Positions 1,983-61,740 of a stretch of 64,000 nt of DNA are shown here, one piece after another. Origin of the DNA: Malacoraja senta (taxonomy: Eukaryota). How positions within the stretch are numbered: position 1 is the first letter of the stretch; each line of letters starts with the position of its first letter. Both the position numbers and the translations under genes were made by a program. The notes beneath the pieces are model-generated. The model ran no database searches. It saw nothing but the letters and a program-made list of their open reading frames with translations, and was not told the origin of the DNA. The DNA is taken from NCBI GenBank assembly GCA_038087875.1, contig CM075989.1:22756001-22820000 (forward strand), in the 5' to 3' direction.

Positions 1983-2270
1983 AGAGTGCTGGAGTAACTC
2001 AGCGGGTCAAGCAGCATCTGTGGAGAACATGGATAGGTGACGTTTCACAGAGTGCTGGAGTAACTCAGCGGGTCAGGCAGCATCTGTGGAGAACATGGAT
2101 AGGTGACGTTTCACAGAGTGCTGGAGTAACTCAGCGGGTCAGGCAGCATCTGTGGAGAACATGGATAGGTGACGTTTCACAGAGTGCTGGAGTAATTCAG
2201 CGGGTCAGGCAGCATCTGTGGAGAACATGGATAGGTGATGTTTCGGGTCGGGACCCTTCTTCAGACTGAT
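1983..2270 (-). repeat. 66-bp tandem array (4 units) derived from the Penelope-like terminal repeat, ending in a hammerhead-like core
   Basis: AGAGTGCTGGAGTAACTCAGCGGGTCAGGCAGCATCTGTGGAGAACATGGATAGGTGACGTTTCAC units start at 1983, 2049, 2115, 2181. Confidence 0.9.
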
Positions 2271-2379
2271 TGCATGGGTGGTGAAAAAATCTGGAAAAGA
2301 GCAAGAAAATATTATGTTAATTATGTTAATGAAAATATTATGTTAATTTTCTTTCTCCCCACCCCTGCCATCAGTAGAG

Positions 2380-2572
2380 TCAAGAGGAGTCCCGACCTGA
2401 AACGTCACCTATCCATGTTCTCCAGAGATGCTGCCTGACCCGCTGAGTTACTCCAGCACTCTGTGAAACGTCACCTATCCATGTTCTCCACAGATGCTGC
2501 CTGACCCACTGAGTACACCAGTATTTTGTGACCTTCCTTGGTAAACCAGCATCTGCGGTTTCTTGTTTCTAC
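2380..2572 (+). mobile_element. Penelope-like terminal repeat with a duplicated 66-bp unit
   Basis: GAAACGTCACC at 2399 and 2465; inverted relative to 1983-2270. Confidence 0.75.
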
Positions 2573-2919: not shown

Positions 2920-3515
2920 TGTGTGTGTGCATGTCTGTGTGAGCATACGTGTGTGTGTGTGTATGTGTGTGTGTGTGCATGTGGGTGTGTGTGCGTGTGT
3001 GTGTGTTCGTGAGTGTGAGAGAGTGTGTGTGGGTGTGTGCACATGCGTGTGTTTGTATATGTGTGTATGTGGGTGTGTGTTCGTGAGTGTGAGAGAGTGT
3101 GTGGGTGCGTGTGGGTGTGTGCGCATGGGTGTGTTTGTATGTGTGTGTGTGCGCGTGTGTGTGTGTGTTTGTATGTGTGTGTCCACGCGTGTGAGAGAGT
3201 GTGTGTATGTGTGCGCGTGCGTGTGTGTGTTTGTATGTGTGTGTGCGCAGGTGTATGTGTGTGTATGTGTGTGCGTGAGCGCTTATGTGTCTGCCTGCCT
3301 CTGTATGTGTATGTGTGTGTGTTCGTGAGTGTGAGAGAGTGTGTGTGGGTGTGCACATGCGTGTGTTTGTGTGCATGTGTGTTTGTATGTGTGTGTCCAC
3401 GTGTGTGAGAGAGTGTGTGTATGTGTGCGCGTGTGTTTGTCTGCGTGTGTGCGCACATATGTGTGTGTATGTGTGTGCGTGAGCGCTTATGTGTCTGCCT
3501 GCCTCTGTATGTGTG
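2920..3515. repeat. Degenerate (GT)n microsatellite with internal block duplication
   Basis: GT-rich tract; GTGAGCGCTTATGTGTCTGCCTGCCTCTGTATGTG occurs at ~3276 and ~3479. Confidence 0.95.
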
Positions 3516-13815: not shown

Positions 13816-14477
13816 GTGGAAGAACAAATGAGGACCCGGTGCAGATATTTTGTAAGTTTGTCAACGCCCTTAATGTGGCGACTATTCGCATACCTTGGGT
13901 ATGTAAACAAAGAATTTCACTGTGACTTGCCACATGTGACAATAAAGTATTCCATTCCAACGAAACTAAACTGAAGGTGACGTCCTCAACTGAACTGACC
14001 TCCATCTGTCCATTGCCCAGGAATCGGCCTGGGTCATGTGGCTAAATCACTGTAGACTTTTATTCAGACCGCAGCAAAAGTACTTCCCGCTGAGCCAAGA
14101 CTAACGCTGCAGAAACTCTTCAGTTACCTGAAGAGAGGGGTAATGTCACTATTTGCCGATAACACCAAAACAGGGGAGGAGACATGCTGTGCAGAATAAT
14201 TCAGACGTAGTGAACATAACAGCACTAATCCCCCCTTGCTCTGTTTCTAAGAAGGCTCAGCTCAATGAAGCAGAAATTAAGTGGGGACTAGGAAATGAAT
14301 GGAAACAAAAAGATTTAAGCTTTGTGAAGTGAATGGTTATTTCAAATTACGAAAGGACTGGAGTGGTGCAATAATGCATGCAAGGCTAGAAAACTACAGT
14401 TTTTACAGAGTGTATGGTGATTTGGATTGGGTGAAGTTACATTTAGTTAAGCCCATCATACGACAACCCCTTCCAAC

Positions 14478-14795
14478 CAAAGATAGACACAAAAAGCTGG
14501 AGTAACTCAGCGGGGCAGGCAGCATCTCTGGAGAACATGGATCGGTGACATTTCACAGAGTGTTGGAGTAACCCAGCGGGACAGGCAGCATCTCTGGAGA
14601 GAAGGAATGGGTGACATTTCGGGTCGAGACCCTTCTTCAGACTGTCTGAAGAAGGTCCTCGACCCGAAACACCACCCATTCCTTCTCTCCAGAGATGCTG
14701 CCTGTCCCGCTGGGTTACTCCAGCATTTTGTGTCTGTCTCTGGGGAACATGGATAGGTGACGTTTCGGGTCAGGATCCTTCTTCAGACTGATTGC
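14478..14795. mobile_element. Cluster of inverted and tandem Penelope-like terminal repeats
   Basis: Back-to-back hammerhead-like cores at 14610-14675 (CTTCTTCAGACTGTCTGAAGAAGG). Confidence 0.8.
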
Positions 14796-15039
14796 AGGAT
14801 GGGGAAAGTATCTCTTCTGCCTTCCCTTCCCCCACCCACTCCTCCAGCACTTTGTGCTTCTCTAGGATCAGAGCTCCCATTCATTTGAAAGGGGAATCAT
14901 GATATACAAAATCCCAGAGGATAAAGGTAAGTTATATATTCTGTATTTTGTTTAAGCATCTCGTAGAGCTTTAATACATTTTAATTACTTTTTTTAGTTT
15001 TAATATTTGAAGCGCAATCTAAAACGTACAAAAAAAGAC

Positions 15040-15434
15040 CACAGAGTGCTGGAGTAACTCAGCGGGTCAGGCAGCATCTGTGGAGAACACGGATAGGTGA
15101 CGTTTCACAGAGTGCTGGAGTAACTCAGCGGGTCAGGCAGCATCTGTGGAGCGAAGGAAATGGGCAACCTTTTGGGCCGAAACCCTGAAGGAAATAGGCA
15201 ACGTTTCGGCCCGAAACCCTTCCGGGTTTCGGCCCGAAACGTTGCCTATTTCCTTCGCTCCATAGATGCTGCCGGAACATGGACAGGTGACGTTTCACAG
15301 AATGCTGGAGTAACTCAGCGGGTCAGGCAGCATCTGTGGAGAACATGGATAGGTGACGTTTCACAGAGTGCTGGAGTAACTCAGCGGGTCAGCCAGCATC
15401 GCTGGAGAACATGGATGGGTGACACTTCTTCAGA
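15040..15434 (-). repeat. 66-bp tandem array of Penelope-like repeat with a nested second-subfamily palindrome
   Basis: Same unit as 1983-2270; 15150-15272 carries the GGGTTTCGGCCCGAAACGTTGCC variant. Confidence 0.8.
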
Positions 15435-25830: not shown

Positions 25831-27342
25831 ATGTGCAAACCTACACTAATGTCTCATCAGACGCTCCCGCACAATTGCAATGCCACCTTGCCTTCAACTG
25901 ACACGCAGCCCCTCTGCCACCACATGGTCTTCAGAGGGCGACAACCAAACCCCCCAGATCATGGCCCCGTAGCAGAAGCGAGGCTGGAAACTGGAAGTAT
26001 CCTGAGCTAATTCTGCTACCTCCATCATCTATTGCAACAAGTGATGGCTCCCACTGATTGTCGCCAGAAGCTTGCGTCCTTTTCAGGACGGACGATGACA
26101 GCGGGGTCAACGTTTGTAACAAGATGGACACGAAAAGAAGAAGAAAAAAGAACTGGAAAAGAAAATGTCTGAAGAAGGGTATCGACCGGAAGCGTCACCC
26201 ATTCCTTATCTCCAGAGATGCAGCCTGTCCCGCTGAGTTACTCCAGCTTTTTGTGTCTATCTTCGGTGTAAACCAGCATCTGCAGTTCCTTCCTCACACA
26301 ATCTATAGCATTGGTTTGTGCTCCCTTTAGACTGGGTTATGATGTCCATCATCTGTCATTTATTGCAATGGTTTTGGCAACGTCAAGGAACACAGGCAAT
26401 TGACAACCCATCCCACCAAGATGTCCATGAATCTCTGGAGCCTGTCATCCTAACCCTGGTGGTGGTGGCCCAGTTACAAATGACCCAAAGAAACCCGTTC
26501 ACACCAAAGGTCGTTCACACCAAAACTCACCGGAGTGCTGCCTCTATTCCCTCTCTATCTTTGCCCGAGTCTTCTAATTCACCCACCCCCCCCCCCCCCC
26601 CCCGTCCCTCCATCTTGCTCTTACCACTCCAAGTCTTCCCCTGACACCTCTAAGTCTCTCCCATACCCTTATGTGTTCATATTCATAACTTATAGGAGCA
26701 GAATTAGGCCATTTGGCCCATCAAGTCTACTCCACCATTCAATCGTGGTTGACCTATCGTTCTCTCTCAACCCCATTCTCCTGCCTTCTCCCCGTAACCC
26801 CCTGACACCCGCCCCACCCCACCCTACATCAGTCTGAAGGAGGGTCTCGACCCGAAACGTTGCCTATTTCCTTCGCTCCATAGATGCTGCTGCACCCGCT
26901 GAGTTTCTCCAGCACTTTTGTCTACCTTCGATATTCCAGCATCTGCAGATCCTTCTTAAACTCCTTGTAAATCTTCTCTTCACTCTTTCCGTCGTAGAAA
27001 ATCTTTTAAAATCTCATTCTTTTTTGTTATTTGTGGGTCCTTTGTCACCCAGTGACATGGACCTTCATCAGGTAGTGGATGGTCGATCTGCTTTCAATGC
27101 AAACCCCTCTGTGTTTCTTCCAGACAGCAGCAAAACTGGTTAGAAAGTTTAACTCAACTCCCAGATCAGCATCGCTGCATCACACAAGACAGCCTCTCTT
27201 GTGCGGAGTCTGCATGTCATGGTGCTACAGTGAGTTGGGGGGGGGTGGCATTGGGGTGTGGGAAGGCTGCGCCATGGGAGGGAAAGGTAGTTGTAACCCC
27301 CTGCATCAAAAGCACACCATAGATGAACCTTCAAAGCACCGA

Positions 27343-36622: not shown

Positions 36623-36819
36623 AACTGCGCACAAATACATGCACGGAAACACACACAGATGCACCGTCAGATTCAGATTGGCATGGTCCTGAGTTGAGCA
36701 AAAACATAGAACAGTACAACACAGGAACACTCCCTTCAGCCCATCTTGTCTGTGGTGACCATGATGCCATTTTAATGGAACCCATCTGCCTGTACATGGT
36801 CTGCATCCCTTTATGCCCG

Positions 36820-37394
36820 ATGGGATGAGATGGGATGAGATGGGATGAGATGGGATGAGATGGGATGAGATGGGATGAGATGGGATGAGATGGGATGAGA
36901 TGGGATGAGATGGGATGAGATGGGATGAGATGGGATGAGATGGGATGAGATGGGATGAGATGGGATGAGATGGGATGAGATGGGATGAGATGGGATGAGA
37001 TGGGATGAGATGGGATGAGATGGGATGAGATGGGATGAGATGGGATGAGATGGGATGAGATGGGATGAGATGGGATGGGATGGGATGAGATGGGATGAGA
37101 TGGGATGAGATGGGATGAGATGGGATGAGATGGGATGGGATGGGATGAGATGGGATGAGATGGGATGAGATGGGATGAGATGGGATGAGATGGGATGAGA
37201 TGGGATGAGATGGGATGAGATGGGATGAGATGGGATGAGATGGGATGAGATGGGATGAGATGGGATGAGATGGGATGGGATGGGATGGGATGGGATGGGA
37301 TGAGATGGGATGAGATGGGATGGGATGAGATGGGATGAGATGGGATGAGATGGGATGAGATGGGATGAGATGGGATGAGATGGGATGAGATGAG
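36820..37394. repeat. (ATGGGATGAG)n decamer tandem array, ~575 bp
   Basis: Near-perfect alternation of ATGGG and ATGAG pentamers. Confidence 0.97.
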
Positions 37395-38139
37395 ATTGGA
37401 TTAGAACAGTATAGCACAGGAATAGGTCCTTCAACCCACAACATCTGAATGGGCTGTTTTACCGTGTATCTTCCAATTAATCAATCAATCAATAAACAAA
37501 TACCAATACCTTAATTAGCACGGTTAGCACGGACTGGTTAGCATGAAACAAAAGCTCTTCACTTTACCTCGGTACACGTGGCAATAAACTAAACTAAACT
37601 AACTGCAATAAGAACATTGATTGAATTGAAAGACACAAATTGAAAACAAGCCATTCAGCCCATCGAGACCATGATGTCCATCAAACACCCGTTCATACTA
37701 GTTCTATTTTATCCCACTTTTGCACGTACATACTCCACACCAGCAACAATTTACAGAAGCCACATAAACCTACAAACGCGCACGTCTTTGGGATGTGGGA
37801 GGAAACAGGAGCACCTGGAGGAAACCCGCATGGTAACAGGGAGAACGCGCAAACTCCACACAGACAGCAACCAAGGTCAGAATGGAACCCGGGTCTCTGG
37901 CACCGTGAGGCAGCAGCTGTGCCACTGTGCCACCCATAAGTACATAGTAAGTAGGAGAATGAATAAACCATTCAGCCCCTCAAGCTAGCCCCACCGTTCG
38001 ATATGTGCATTGGTGGTCTACCCCAGACCTCCTCTCCTCTTCTGCACTAGTTCCCTAAGACCAGCAGTTCCTTGATCCTTCCAAAATCTATTCACTTCCT
38101 CTTTAAATTCCCCCAATGATCTAGAATCTGTTGAGAAGA

Positions 38140-42779: not shown

Positions 42780-42812
42780 GTCTGAAGAAGGGTCTCGACC
42801 CGAAACGTCACC
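42780..42812 (+). ncRNA. Minimal type-I hammerhead-like motif (best-preserved of many copies)
   Basis: GT-CTGAAGA-A-GGGT(CTCG)ACCC-GAAAC-GTC-AC: CUGANGA core, stem II, GAAA, palindromic ACGU, GUC triplet. Confidence 0.7.
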
Positions 42813-43385
42813 CGTTCCTTCTCTCCAGAGATGCTGCCTGTCCCGCTCAGTTACTCCAGCATTTTGCGCCTATCTTCAGTTTAACCCAACATCTGCAGTT
42901 CCTTCCTACGCAAGCAATGAGGCTCCAACCTTCCCCCTGCAGTCTCATCTCCTGCTCATTCAGATTCAGTTTAATTTATCAGTTTAGTTTATTGTCACGT
43001 GTTCCGAGGTACAGGGAAAAGCTTTAAATGAGTTTGAACTCGGGAATGAGAGGGAAAAAAAACAATCTAGAGAATTAATCTCCTAAGAATGCTTCCAATT
43101 TATTTGCAAGCCAGGCCAGTACCATTTTGTCACATTGCTGTTGAATTCTTTATCTACATTGTTCCCTGTCTAGTTTAGCTTGGAGATCATCATAGTCCAC
43201 CATGAGTCAAAATATCAAAATAGAGATTGGCCATCCCAATTAGATCCATCAACACTTCTTCAAGTGAGTATGAGCAGAATTTAAACCAGGGGGAGGTTTC
43301 CAGACATGTTAGGCAGAGGACTCACTAGTATACCATAATTGTGACTAGCCTCTCAAACCAAGTCCGAACCTCTAGCTTTTCTCCA

Positions 43386-51745: not shown

Positions 51746-51945
51746 NNNNNNNNNNNNNNNNNNNNNNNNNNNNNNNNNNNNNNNNNNNNNNNNNNNNNNN
51801 NNNNNNNNNNNNNNNNNNNNNNNNNNNNNNNNNNNNNNNNNNNNNNNNNNNNNNNNNNNNNNNNNNNNNNNNNNNNNNNNNNNNNNNNNNNNNNNNNNNN
51901 NNNNNNNNNNNNNNNNNNNNNNNNNNNNNNNNNNNNNNNNNNNNN
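51746..51945. other. Assembly gap (200 N)
   Basis: Run of N. Confidence 1.
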
Positions 51946-52782: not shown

Positions 52783-54714
52783 TCGGCCCTGGTCTAGTCT
52801 TTCCTCGCCTGCAGCTCTTCACCCCTCCCACTTTCGGTCTGAAGAAGGGTCCCAACCCAAAACGCCACCCATCCATGTTCTCCAAAGATGCTGCCTGACC
52901 CATTGAGTTACTCCAGCTCTTTGAGTCTATCTTAAATATATGACATATGTTGCTACATGCAGCATGGAGTTCAGTCAGAGTCTGGACTGAAAGAGTTAAA
53001 TAAAGTACAAAAAGCAGGAGTGTTTAACAGTAAGCAGTTCCCTCCCCCTCCTTCACTTCCCATGGGGGGCGCAAGTCTAGATAGAGAACGAAACAGTGAA
53101 AAAAAAAAGCATTTGGTATTCATATATCTCATAAACTATTCATCTCAGCTACAAAGAGTTCTGTCAAACATTGATAAGGTCCAGGATTCAGGGTTCTATA
53201 GAATTTATACAGTCAGCTATTGACAACTTCTTTACAAGATCTAAGTTGAAGACAGCTGACGTTCATTTTATATCCTCTACATATCCAGCCTCCGTCTTCA
53301 GACTTTTTAATGAATAATTACCTGGGGAGAGGAAAAAAAAAACGAGATGGATATTTTGACTTTTTTTGGCCAGTGCTCAATATTAAAAGCATATTGAATA
53401 GTTGCGACGAAAGAGGATGGGTCGTGATGTCAAAGAAGTTTTATTTGATTCTGTTATGGACGGTGGCTGGACTTTCGTTGGTGCATCTCGAAAACAGCAC
53501 AGCTTGGATTTGCAAGATGCTTAATAACTTGGTTTTGGGTAGAGAGGGGAAAAAAAACTTGAAAACATTGACGATTATGTAAAAATAAGTGGCCGAACAA
53601 TGGCCCTTTACAATCCCCACGCTGCAATTAAAGTAGTGCTTTCACTGGGTAGTCTAACGGTGCTATCCAGGGACATCATTAAAACTACTTTCAATATCCC
53701 TGGGAAACCAACAAATAAGAGAGGTTTTACGGGTTCATACACAACTGACAATCTTAGTAATATTTCCACTTAATAATTCAGTTGAAGCAGCGTTGCCTGC
53801 AATTATTAGCACGCAGTAATAATTACCATGTAAAAATCAATGTGGTCAGTTCATTCCAAGATGATTTACAAGTCTGAAGAAGGGTCTCGGCCCAAAATGT
53901 CACCCATTCCTTCTCTCCAGAGATGCTGCCTGTCCCGCTGAGTTACTCCAGTTTTTTGTGTCTACCTTCGATTTAAACCAGCATCTGCAGTTCCTTCCTG
54001 CACATGCTTTACAAGTCTACAGCCAGAGTTATCATTTTAATATCCAGAGGGAGATCGAGGGTGCTTTCATATAATCTCATCACTTAGAAAGTGTTATCCA
54101 AACTTTAAAACTACAGGTTAGTTGAGTTTATTGTCCTGTGTACCAGGTACAGAGAGAAGCCTTCGTTGTTGAGTGCTATCCAGCCAGTGGAAAGACGACA
54201 CATGACTACAATCAATGTGTGGGAAGGAACTGTAGATGCTGGTTAACATCGAAGGTAGACACAAAATGCTGGAGTAACTCAGCGGGTCAAGCAGAATTTC
54301 GGGAGAAAAGGAATAAGTGACGTTTCGGGACAGGACAAGTCGGAAGAAGGGTCTCGACCTGAAACGTCTTCAGTATTTTGTGTCTATTTTCAGCAGAAAG
54401 ACAATACATGATAACAATTGGGCCATCCACAGTGTACAGATACAGGATAAAGGATACACGTGAATAGTGTTTCAGTGCAAGGTAAAGCCAGTAAAGTCGG
54501 ATCAAAGATAGTCCGAGGATCTCCAACGAGGTAGACAGTATTCTGTAGGAAGGAACTGCAGATGCTGGTTTAAACCGAAGATAGACACAGAAAGCTGGAG
54601 ATACTTCAGCCTCTTGTGGTAGATAGTAGTTCTGGACTGCACTGTAGTGGTGGTAGGATGGGTCAGTTGCCTGAGAACAGGAGAGAGAGAGAGGGGCCCA
54701 GTCTGGCACGCAAT

Positions 54715-60001: not shown

Positions 60002-61327
60002 CATAGATACATAGATACATAGAAATTAGGTGCAGGAGTAGGCCATTCAGCCCTTCGAGCCTGCACCGCCATTCAATACGATCATGGCTGATCATCCAAC
60101 TCAGTATCCCGTACCTGCCTTCTCTCCATACCCCCTGATCCCTTTAGCCACAAGGGCCACATCTAATTCCCTCTTAAATATAGCCAATGAACTGGCCTCA
60201 ACTACCCTCTGTGGCAGAGAGTTCCAGAGATTCACCACTCTCTGTGTGAAAAAGTTTTTCCTCATCTCGGTCTTAAAGGATTTTCCCCTTATCCTTAAGC
60301 TGTGACCCCTTGTCCTGGACTTCCCCAACATCGGGAACAATCTTCCTGCATCTAGCCTGTCCAACCCCATAAGAATCTTGTACGTTTCTATAAGATCCCC
60401 TCTCAATCTCCTAAATTCTAGCGAGTATAAGCCAAGTCTATCCAGTCTTTCTTCATATGAAAGTCCTGACATCCCAGGAATCAGTCTGGTGAACCTTCTC
60501 TGCACTCCCTCTATGGCTATAATGTCCTTCCTCAGATTTGGAGACCAAAACTGTACGCAATACTCCAGGTGTGGTCTCACCAAGACCCTGTACAACTGCA
60601 GTAGAACCTCACTGCTCCTATACTCAAATCCTCTTGCTATGAAGGCCAACATACCATTCGCTTTCTTCACTGCCTGCTGCACCTGCATGCCTACTTTCAA
60701 TGACTGGTGTACCATGACACCCAGGTCTCGCTGCATCTCCCCATTTCCTAATCGGCCACCATTTAGATAATAGTCTGCCTTCCCGTTTTTGCTACCAAAG
60801 TGGATAACCTCACATTTATCCACATTATACTGCATCTGCCAAACATTTGCCCACTCACCCAGCCTATCCAAGTCACCTTGCAGTCTCCTAGCATCCTCCT
60901 CACAGCTAACACTGCCCCCCAGCTTAGTGTCATCCGCAAACTTGGAGATGTTGCTTTCAATTCCCTCGTCCAGATCATTAATATAAATTGTAAATAGCTG
61001 GGGTCCCAGCACTGAGCCTTGTGGTACCCCACTAGTCACTGCCTGCCATTGTGAAAAGGACCCGTTTACTCCTACTCTTTGCTTCCTGTTTGCCAGCCAG
61101 TGCTCTATCCACATCAATACTGAACCCCCAATACCGTGTGATTTAAGTTTGTATCCTAATCTCTTATGTGGTACCTTGTCGAAAGCCTTCTGAAAGTCCA
61201 GATACAACACATCCACTGGTTCTCCCCTATCCACTCTACTAGTTACATCCTCGAAAAATTCTATAAGATTCGTCAGACACGATTTACCTTTCGTAAATCC
61301 ATGCTGACTTTGTCCAATGATTTCACC
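60002..61327 (-). mobile_element. Young 5'-truncated CR1 LINE
   Basis: 3' UTR with (ACATAGAT)n tail and an uninterrupted RT reading frame. Confidence 0.95.
60101..61327 (-). CDS. CR1 ORF2 reverse transcriptase domain and C-terminus (5'-truncated, no native start)
   Basis: SQHGFTKGKSCLTNL, YLDFQKAFDKVPH, GVPQGSVLGP, KFADD; frame open from 61327 to the stop at 60101. Confidence 0.93.
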   Translation of the reverse strand, partial: GEIIGQSQHGFTKGKSCLTNLIEFFEDVTSRVDRGEPVDVLYLDFQKAFDKVPHKRLGYKLKSHGIGGSVLMWIEHWLANRKQRVGVNGSFSQWQAVTSGVPQGSVLGPQLFTIYINDLDEGIESNISKFADDTKLGGSVSCEEDARRLQGDLDRLGEWANVWQMQYNVDKCEVIHFGSKNGKADYYLNGGRLGNGEMQRDLGVMVHQSLKVGMQVQQAVKKANGMLAFIARGFEYRSSEVLLQLYRVLVRPHLEYCVQFWSPNLRKDIIAIEGVQRRFTRLIPGMSGLSYEERLDRLGLYSLEFRRLRGDLIETYKILMGLDRLDAGRLFPMLGKSRTRGHSLRIRGKSFKTEMRKNFFTQRVVNLWNSLPQRVVEASSLAIFKRELDVALVAKGIRGYGEKAGTGY

Positions 61328-61340
61328 AGGTAGTTGAGGC

Positions 61341-61740
61341 CAAAGATCCTATAGCAAGCAAGATAGATCACTCGACGAAAAAGACGTAGTACGGTCATGG
61401 GCAGATTTATGGGTAATTTTCGGCCCCATTTCCGTAACTGGCTTCCGTCTCCGCACCAAAGATCCCATAGCGGAGCAAAGATAACTAGTGCGGAGACGGA
61501 AGCCGGTTACGGAAACATCCTCGTAAAAATAAAAGTTCTTTGGTAAAAATCTTCTCCTCATTTTCAGAATTATAATTTATTAACACAAACTGTTCCCCCG
61601 CAACGTTGATTACACTGCGAGTCGGGTCGGGTTACGGAAATGGATGAAAAAAAGGCCCACGTTCCGCTCCGTTGCGTACTACATGTCAGCCCATTGCATT
61701 TAGAAGGAGAGGTCTATCTTGCTCCGCTATAGGATCTTTG
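61341..61740. mobile_element. MITE, possibly hAT superfamily
   Basis: TIR CAAAGATCCTATAGC..AGCAAGATAGA / TCTATCTTGCTCCGCTATAGGATCTTTG; flanks GTTGAGGC and GTTGGGGGC (imperfect ~8-bp TSD); internal TIR copy at ~61457. Confidence 0.8.

Follow-up and report, generated by a model that had tools for sequence, protein, structure and literature searches.

Endonuclease-bearing Penelope-like elements (PLEs), with their minimal type I hammerhead ribozymes, are among the closest described systems to the repeats analysed here. PLE hammerheads are minimal, with an extra base before stem II, a G10.1-C11.1 pair and a palindromic stem III (PMC4209133). PLE insertions show an inverted, 5′-truncated copy and often a 30-40 bp tail at one end (PMC8557442, PMC3846280), the tail being located between two start sites of the reverse transcriptase (RT) (PMC11167929), and insertion of PLEs into or beside resident copies has been reported (PMC6765202). 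Animal non-LTR retrozymes are short, non-coding tandem repeats from PLE ends, with few units and a dispersed distribution; they have been reported in one chondrichthyan genome, with a mean consensus of 363 bp (PMC7229834; 10.64898/2026.07.22.740005).

In the 64,000-nucleotide stretch of DNA that we analysed (the window), we find short repeats that resemble the hammerheads in the pseudo-LTRs (pLTRs) of endonuclease-bearing PLEs (PMC4209133) in the CUGANGA motif, the extra nucleotide before stem II and G10.1-C11.1, in the palindromic remnant of stem III and the very short stem I, and in the occurrence of mostly solitary, truncated copies together with opposite-strand pairs. They differ in that one subfamily repeats only the segment downstream of stem II, and the window is without an ORF-bearing copy. 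With the animal retrozymes (PMC7229834; 10.64898/2026.07.22.740005) they share the character of a dispersed, non-coding tandem repeat of few units related to the PLE pLTR; however, whereas every unit of a retrozyme has its own complete hammerhead (two or more in succession by the criterion of 10.64898/2026.07.22.740005), the units described here measure 66 bp and 0 of 8 contain one, and retrozyme pipelines that require a full hammerhead per unit would therefore miss them. Unlike the anole Poseidon element PAc (PMC11167929), which is autonomous and has an AUG at stem II, the repeats have a core that reads CUGAAGA; their tandem subfamily carries a stop in a frame that stays open in some major-subfamily copies. 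The non-autonomous Chlamys PLEs such as MRC1 (PMC8557442) likewise resemble the 3′ ends of autonomous elements and insert in multiple head-to-tail copies, but they come from a green alga, belong to a clade without canonical hammerheads, and it is the element itself, instead of a 66-bp stretch within it, that is repeated. The literature searched, which was mostly open-access, returned no description of 66-bp units devoid of a core; the family may be listed in the supplementary material of PMC4209133 or the 2026 preprint.

Results

The window is non-coding, repeat-rich animal DNA, with SINE and LINE pieces that we take to resemble those of cartilaginous fishes. An antisense repeat at 1100-1300, presumably a tRNA-derived, SINE-like one, recurs through the window, and a 415-aa open frame on the minus strand at 60101-61348, which we assume to resemble a LINE reverse transcriptase, has shorter related 3′ pieces at 27323, 38784, 41350 and 56369. 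The window further contains a 10-bp tandem array at 36819-37396 (57.8 copies, 98% matches), a degenerate TG microsatellite at 2920-3481 and a 200-N gap at 51746-51945.

The first-pass annotation had described four separate arrays of 66-bp tandem units that lack CTGAAGA and stem II. The units themselves were confirmed by Tandem Repeats Finder, BLAST and profile searches. Tandem Repeats Finder returned a period of 66 at 1983-2244 (4.0 copies, 98% matches), 2398-2521 (1.9 copies) and 15275-15423 (2.3 copies), while BLAST and profile searches of the window located further units at 14474-14644 and 15038-15186. All downstream units open at GAAA, immediately 3′ of the expected position of stem II, and neither CTGAAGA nor stem II occurs in any of the 8. 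Repeats were present at every place named, but their number as separate arrays had to be revised: the five apparent arrays reduce to 3 independent loci, not 4-5, two of them with nested insertions, and the unit numbers per array are 4, 2, 2 and 4.

The first locus consists of arrays A (1983-2275) and B (2373-2564), which form a head-to-head pair ~105 bp apart. On the minus strand, the hammerhead 5′ half of array A (2245-2267) comprises AGT as a 2-bp stem I arm, CTGAAGA at 2264-2258, a bulged A and stem II at 2256-2245. It is followed by unit A1 (2179-2244), with GAAA, a stem III palindrome mutated to ACAT, the cleavage-site triplet and the hairpin; by A2 (2113-2178), our reference unit, with its hairpin at ~2154-2112 and a local AACGU/AUGUU helix between unit positions 3-7 and 17-21; by A3 (2047-2112), of the same sequence as A2; and by A4 (1983-2046), which stops abruptly 2 nt short, without a normal end or tail. 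Array B, on the plus strand, starts with a damaged core that has lost CTGAAGA (2373-2398) and continues with unit B1 (2399-2464) and unit B2 (2465-2564), the latter with a more diverged 3′ half, a normal end and a ~30-bp tail.

Both remaining loci are interrupted. At locus C (14474-14796), the array has 2 units and is interrupted by a nested head-to-head pair from the major subfamily (14555-14743), whose minus arm merges into the array junction at ~14555-14563; the original core of the array and the first 30 nt of unit 1, of the same subfamily as array A, lie at 14737-14796 on the minus strand, and unit C2, with a normal 3′ end, at 14474-14554 on the same strand. The apparent arrays D and E are one 4-unit array on the minus strand (15040-15434), in which unit 3 is interrupted by a nested inverted piece of another subfamily. 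Here, unit E1 (15363-15433) follows a core without stem II and is more diverged in its 5′ half than the remaining array; E2 and positions 1-22 of unit 3 (E3) occupy 15275-15362, the nested inverted pieces of the GTTGCC subfamily 15152-15274, and positions 22-66 of unit 3 (D1) together with unit 4 (D2) 15041-15151. At locus C as well as at D/E, the nested insertions meet the target array through common sequence, an arrangement that suggests homology-primed insertion into the element's own family.

The 8 unit-unit junctions at these 3 independent loci have the form CACTCTGT|GAAACG. The 13-mer CACTCTGTGAAAC is exact at 2457 on the plus strand and at 2054, 2120, 2186, 15114 and 15370 on the minus strand, and the two further junctions (15308 and 14566) carry a single change each. 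Among the 76 hits of our profile search (see below) there are 9 head-to-tail neighbours, 7 of which are 66-bp-unit junctions, with the eighth junction (E2-E3) contained within one hit. This recurrence is far beyond chance. The register of the junction is ambiguous because 1-2 nt (G or TG) are common to both sides. The C in CACTCTGT probably characterises the subfamily and is not specific to junctions: it also closes unit D2, and in three DNA-type runs 494, 826 and 738 contigs stop at the unit end and go on with other letters. Given these contig ends, the C was dropped as a mark of junctions only.

A search profile built from 9 natural copies gave 76 hits that cover 6,931 bases, or 10.8% of the window. 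As a side observation, this share is an unusually high density for a hammerhead-bearing repeat. The element is 90-130 bp long, and tandem units are confined to one minor subfamily. Copies are laid out as AGT-CTGAAGA-A-stem II-GAAACGTC-ACC, followed by a hairpin, the main end and an optional extension of ~30 nt; the core columns are conserved across the 76 hits, and a core regex matched 10 times, 7 of them with ACGT. Two clusters of 3′ ends, at model positions 100-109 (24 of 76) and at 130 or more (28 of 76), define two end classes ~25-30 nt apart. In PMC11167929 the PLE tail is defined by two start sites of the RT, and the two ends seen here, ~30 nt apart, agree with this pair, which supports assignment to the PLEs. 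Head-to-head copies made up 22 rows, or about 17 distinct pairs; 7 of the 22 rows, which were redundant, doubtful or contained arrays, were omitted, and of the 15 pairs that remained 13 have a single tailed arm and none has two.

The family therefore presents a minimal type I hammerhead, a palindromic stem III remnant, an inverted adjacent copy and a one-arm tail, as expected of the end of an endonuclease-bearing PLE. Judged from this sequence architecture, the repeats are most likely the 3′ ends of a non-autonomous PLE; its identity is drawn from architecture and its partner is inferred, because an RT/endonuclease gene was not found. Reading of 70 ORFs by eye and a motif regex gave no frame recognisable as a telomerase-like RT or GIY-YIG endonuclease in the window, an all-versus-all BLAST upstream of 23 copies gave no shared pLTR extension that passed the filter, and inspection by eye gave no target-site duplication around A/B. 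A search of Rfam produced 0 matches of any kind at the gathering score, and no hammerhead up to E = 10 in 1700-2700; the 14 weak Rfam hits in that interval all lie below gathering and were rejected, the best of them, MIR841 (58 versus 200 bits), being the A/B inverted pair. In three major-subfamily copies (26169-26294, 53874-53999 and 42782-42904), an open frame of 41-42 codons, possibly the N-terminus of a PLE protein, extends from the core and on through the tail. A protein profile search with this frame found no full-length relative and no polyprotein, but 6 short unnamed proteins among 81 candidates; these resemble translated repeat copies and were set aside.

At the other end of the element, the 5′ ends of the family concentrate on the A in TCAGT, immediately ahead of the core, with 27 of 76 hits starting at model positions 3-5, and loose, AT-rich contig ends fall at 2267, a common family 5′ end, in 326, 535 and 549 contigs. 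The cluster could mark a transcription start of the initiator type or, following a pyrimidine tract, a splice acceptor; in both cases only 3 nt would be left for stem I. Every intact 66-bp unit has TGACGT on the opposite strand at positions 3-8; we take this motif to be an ATF/CREB half-site, and its tandem copies could strengthen an internal promoter.

The tandem units are closely alike across loci. No differences from unit A2 are seen in A3 or in the 45 positions of D1; there is a single difference in each of A4, B1, D2 and E2, against 2 in A1, 6 in each of B2 and E1, and 7 in C2. For 50 other copies, nearest-neighbour divergence has a median of 6%. All 8 junctions fall within one subfamily, as read from the 3 loci that are readable in full. 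Positions 1-36 of E1 hold 5 private differences, versus 3 in 229 bp elsewhere in the array (Fisher p = 0.0015, for a segment chosen post hoc), and E1 and B each appear to combine older outer parts with a younger tract, as chimeras would.

The same junction is present in other sequencing data. Parts of 1900-2920 occur in 21 runs, in every case as assembled contigs, which do not show RNA ends; of these runs 4 were used, X17-X21 and organisms C, E and F (shares 0.06-0.42) being left out as evidence. Contigs that span the junction were found in DNA-type runs of organisms A, B and D (X1, X3 and X7), where 61,913, 96,898 and 115,438 contigs were placed on 2158-2307, compared to 10 in the RNA run X16. 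Summed depth past the junction (2173-2177) reached 7.8e5, 2.1e6 and 3.5e6 in X1, X3 and X7, corresponding to 19%, 9% and 13% of peak, or 13%, 6.5% and 9% after removal of contigs that may do no more than overrun the edge; the depth of unique flank in X1 is ~5. These depths suggest thousands of junction copies or more, with the qualification that Logan contig depth is no copy number. The strongest alternative among the joints listed has a depth of 584, and listed alternatives are >1000-fold weaker than the junction, although high-copy alternative junctions can be hidden in short contigs; several of those listed are decayed forms of the same CACTCTGT|GAAACG junction. At 2158-2195, no variant at ≥3% was listed in the three organisms. 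Three contigs of X16 span the junction, one of them identical over 60 nt, and DNA contamination of this RNA run is possible, so that they speak for presence rather than transcription. Exact-pattern scans returned 0 loci in viral contigs, metagenome contigs and prokaryote genomes.

The 66-base repeats belong to a young, abundant subfamily common to related animals. The proposal that a subfamily had propagated, as opposed to local slippage, is supported by the 0-1 base differences between loci, the presence of the junction in three organisms and the weakness of alternative joints, and array junctions did not prove heterogeneous among the joints listed in the three organisms.

The near-identity across loci could also be explained by gene conversion. 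A plain DNA minisatellite would arise from one duplication, followed by gene conversion and unequal exchange among homologous copies, with no RNA step for the array. Homologous partners are plentiful for such exchange in a family that fills 10.8% of the window, and young patches do lie within older copies. Yet array A is young from its core to its end and has its own flanks, the arrays have PLE-type ends and B a tail, and hundreds of contigs per run stop at the unit end with heterogeneous flanks. A history confined to DNA is the least likely of those that we considered.

We instead consider it probable that a duplication of single origin was spread by PLE reverse transcriptase acting on uncut RNA, with resident copies serving as insertion sites. 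The duplication would have arisen once in a source copy, where 1-2 nt of microhomology bridged a repair event or a jump of the RT between templates, after which the RT/endonuclease of an autonomous PLE would copy, in trans, uncut RNA from such sources to new sites. Frequent priming by homology inside resident family copies would give rise to the chimeric and nested structures, and unit number would then shift by slippage, unequal exchange or repeated homing. The part multiplied would be the hairpin before the RT start, with the substrate half of the ribozyme carried along and folded away. In the anole PLE, insertion in vitro needed no ribozyme cleavage and uncut RNA was the main template (PMC11167929).

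The repeated segment itself extends over the 66 bp from stem II to the base of the hairpin. The downstream-type unit is predicted to form an 11-bp hairpin (z = -2.0, matched by 7 of 200 shuffles), of modest stability (z = -1.08 for B1), which ends 5-10 nt before the main end, and the subfamily changes at positions 27 and 63 both improve its pairing, as read from the folds. Multiplication of an RT-loading hairpin is our preferred reason for the success of the subfamily, while riding on an active source locus would fit as well.

The position of the unit boundaries also bears on a recurrent, telomerase-like stutter, in which the PLE RT would stop at stem II and re-prime at the base of the hairpin, remaking the junction each time from monomeric RNA. 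One boundary of the unit falls at the base of stem II and the other 5-10 nt from the main RT start, the number of units is not constant (4, 2, 2 and 4), terminal units also carry the junction-type end, and the PLE RT is sister to telomerase RT (PMC8557442). Recurrence is nonetheless hard to reconcile with 8 of 8 junctions in one subfamily, a microhomology of 1-2 nt, and a difference at position 27 that sets first units apart from later ones in B as well as in E, in keeping with inheritance from a source of several units. Of the 68 other, non-junction hits, 1 starts at model position 26, the base of stem II, and general RT stalling there found no support in this count. We regard the stutter as very unlikely.

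The first-pass annotation had proposed that the arrays could remove the need for dimerisation. A downstream unit would provide ACGUC and ACC in cis and so complete stem III and stem I; in the version that we assessed, the resulting partner-free cleavage would also have driven the spread of the subfamily. The pairing required (core ACGU with downstream ACGU, upstream GU with downstream AC) amounts to half a double hammerhead. It is nested and can be forced in the folding model, in which the unit hairpin draws both ACGU together, and within a nascent window of 12-20 nt of unit 2 the cis fold stands at 7.6-7.8 kcal/mol versus 12.5 for trans at 1 μM. Some weak cleavage by a single PLE ribozyme with an engineered stem III is described in PMC4209133, and the ribozyme of the anole PLE requires the protein of that element for cleavage (PMC11167929), a situation beyond nearest-neighbour models; cleavage here could be protein-assisted as well. 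The downstream ACGT (2172-2175) has no variant at ≥3% listed in the three organisms, which its youth explains equally well.

Inspection of the arrays and folding of complete units told against cleavage in cis. The core, stem II and ACGU are intact beside a unit in 0 of the 5 apparent arrays: A has ACAU, B is without CTGAAGA, C has AUGU in both units (with a wobble-only version of stem III possible), D is without a core and E without stem II. When the core of array A was joined to natural units 2-3, the cis fold lay 12.6 kcal/mol above the ensemble, with a stem III pair probability of ≤0.001; the active fold of natural array A lay 17-19 kcal/mol above it, a trans single junction at 1 μM 12.5 and an idealised control 3.7. 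In none of the folding models did a stable stem III and stem I close the core in one molecule, such folds lying 7.6-13 kcal/mol above the ensemble. The downstream ACGU is predicted to be 86-97% paired inside its own unit, with the AUGUU of the subfamily; other subfamilies also show partial mispairing of their core-proximal ACGU, and misfolding is therefore general. Moreover, stem I is merely 2 bp, and hits that start near the cleavage site number 2 of 76 (model positions 35 and 37), neither of the tandem subfamily. Copies that span from the core to unit 4 need uncut templates, and we infer that their RNA was uncut between those points. The claim that a cis stem III removes the need for dimerisation thus finds no support in the arrays, the fold energies or the sequestered ACGU, and the idea of cis cleavage, weakened but not refuted by these models, appears unlikely to us.

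Cleavage might alternatively have produced a circle. Once a tandem existed, a core acting in cis or in trans would cut two successive GUC sites, and the 66-nt piece would be circularised and reverse-transcribed by rolling circle into a multimer that homes into resident ends. Consistent with this, B and D/E resemble older ends with a younger unit tract, array A stops abruptly inside a unit, a rod is the predicted fold of the 66-nt circle (-10.7 kcal/mol, z = -2.64, matched by 3 of 500 shuffles), and three contigs of the X16 RNA run span the junction, in a library that may contain DNA. The junction, however, is 8 nt upstream of the cleavage site, and cleavage plus ligation therefore cannot have created it. 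A core or core remnant lies upstream at 3 of 3 loci, the binding arms have just 4+2 bp and are sequestered, and clean ligation at the cleavage site is absent among the joints listed. We judge this circle route very improbable. Formulated as a substrate-only satellite, in which a core aided by a PLE protein, acting in cis co-transcriptionally or in trans, cuts the units and the RNA is circularised, copied by rolling circle and homes, the 66-nt unit is a rather improbable case.

Discussion

Our analysis retains one part of the earlier interpretation and sets aside another: an inherited junction in a propagating subfamily is supported, and a cis stem III in place of dimerisation is not. If the units did spread from a single duplication through reverse transcription of uncut RNA, they would constitute an abundant and young PLE-derived minisatellite common to several related species, as well as a record of how a tandem repeat is born from PLE ends and of how the PLE RT primes in copies of its own family. 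The 1-, 2- and 4-unit copies form a natural series of templates for studying recognition by the PLE RT and the role of the ribozyme in mobility. Were cleavage in cis or the circle to be true instead, the units would represent a new way of completing a minimal hammerhead, and a substrate-only satellite would be a retrozyme minus its own catalytic half, that is, a natural alternative to ribozyme dimerisation.
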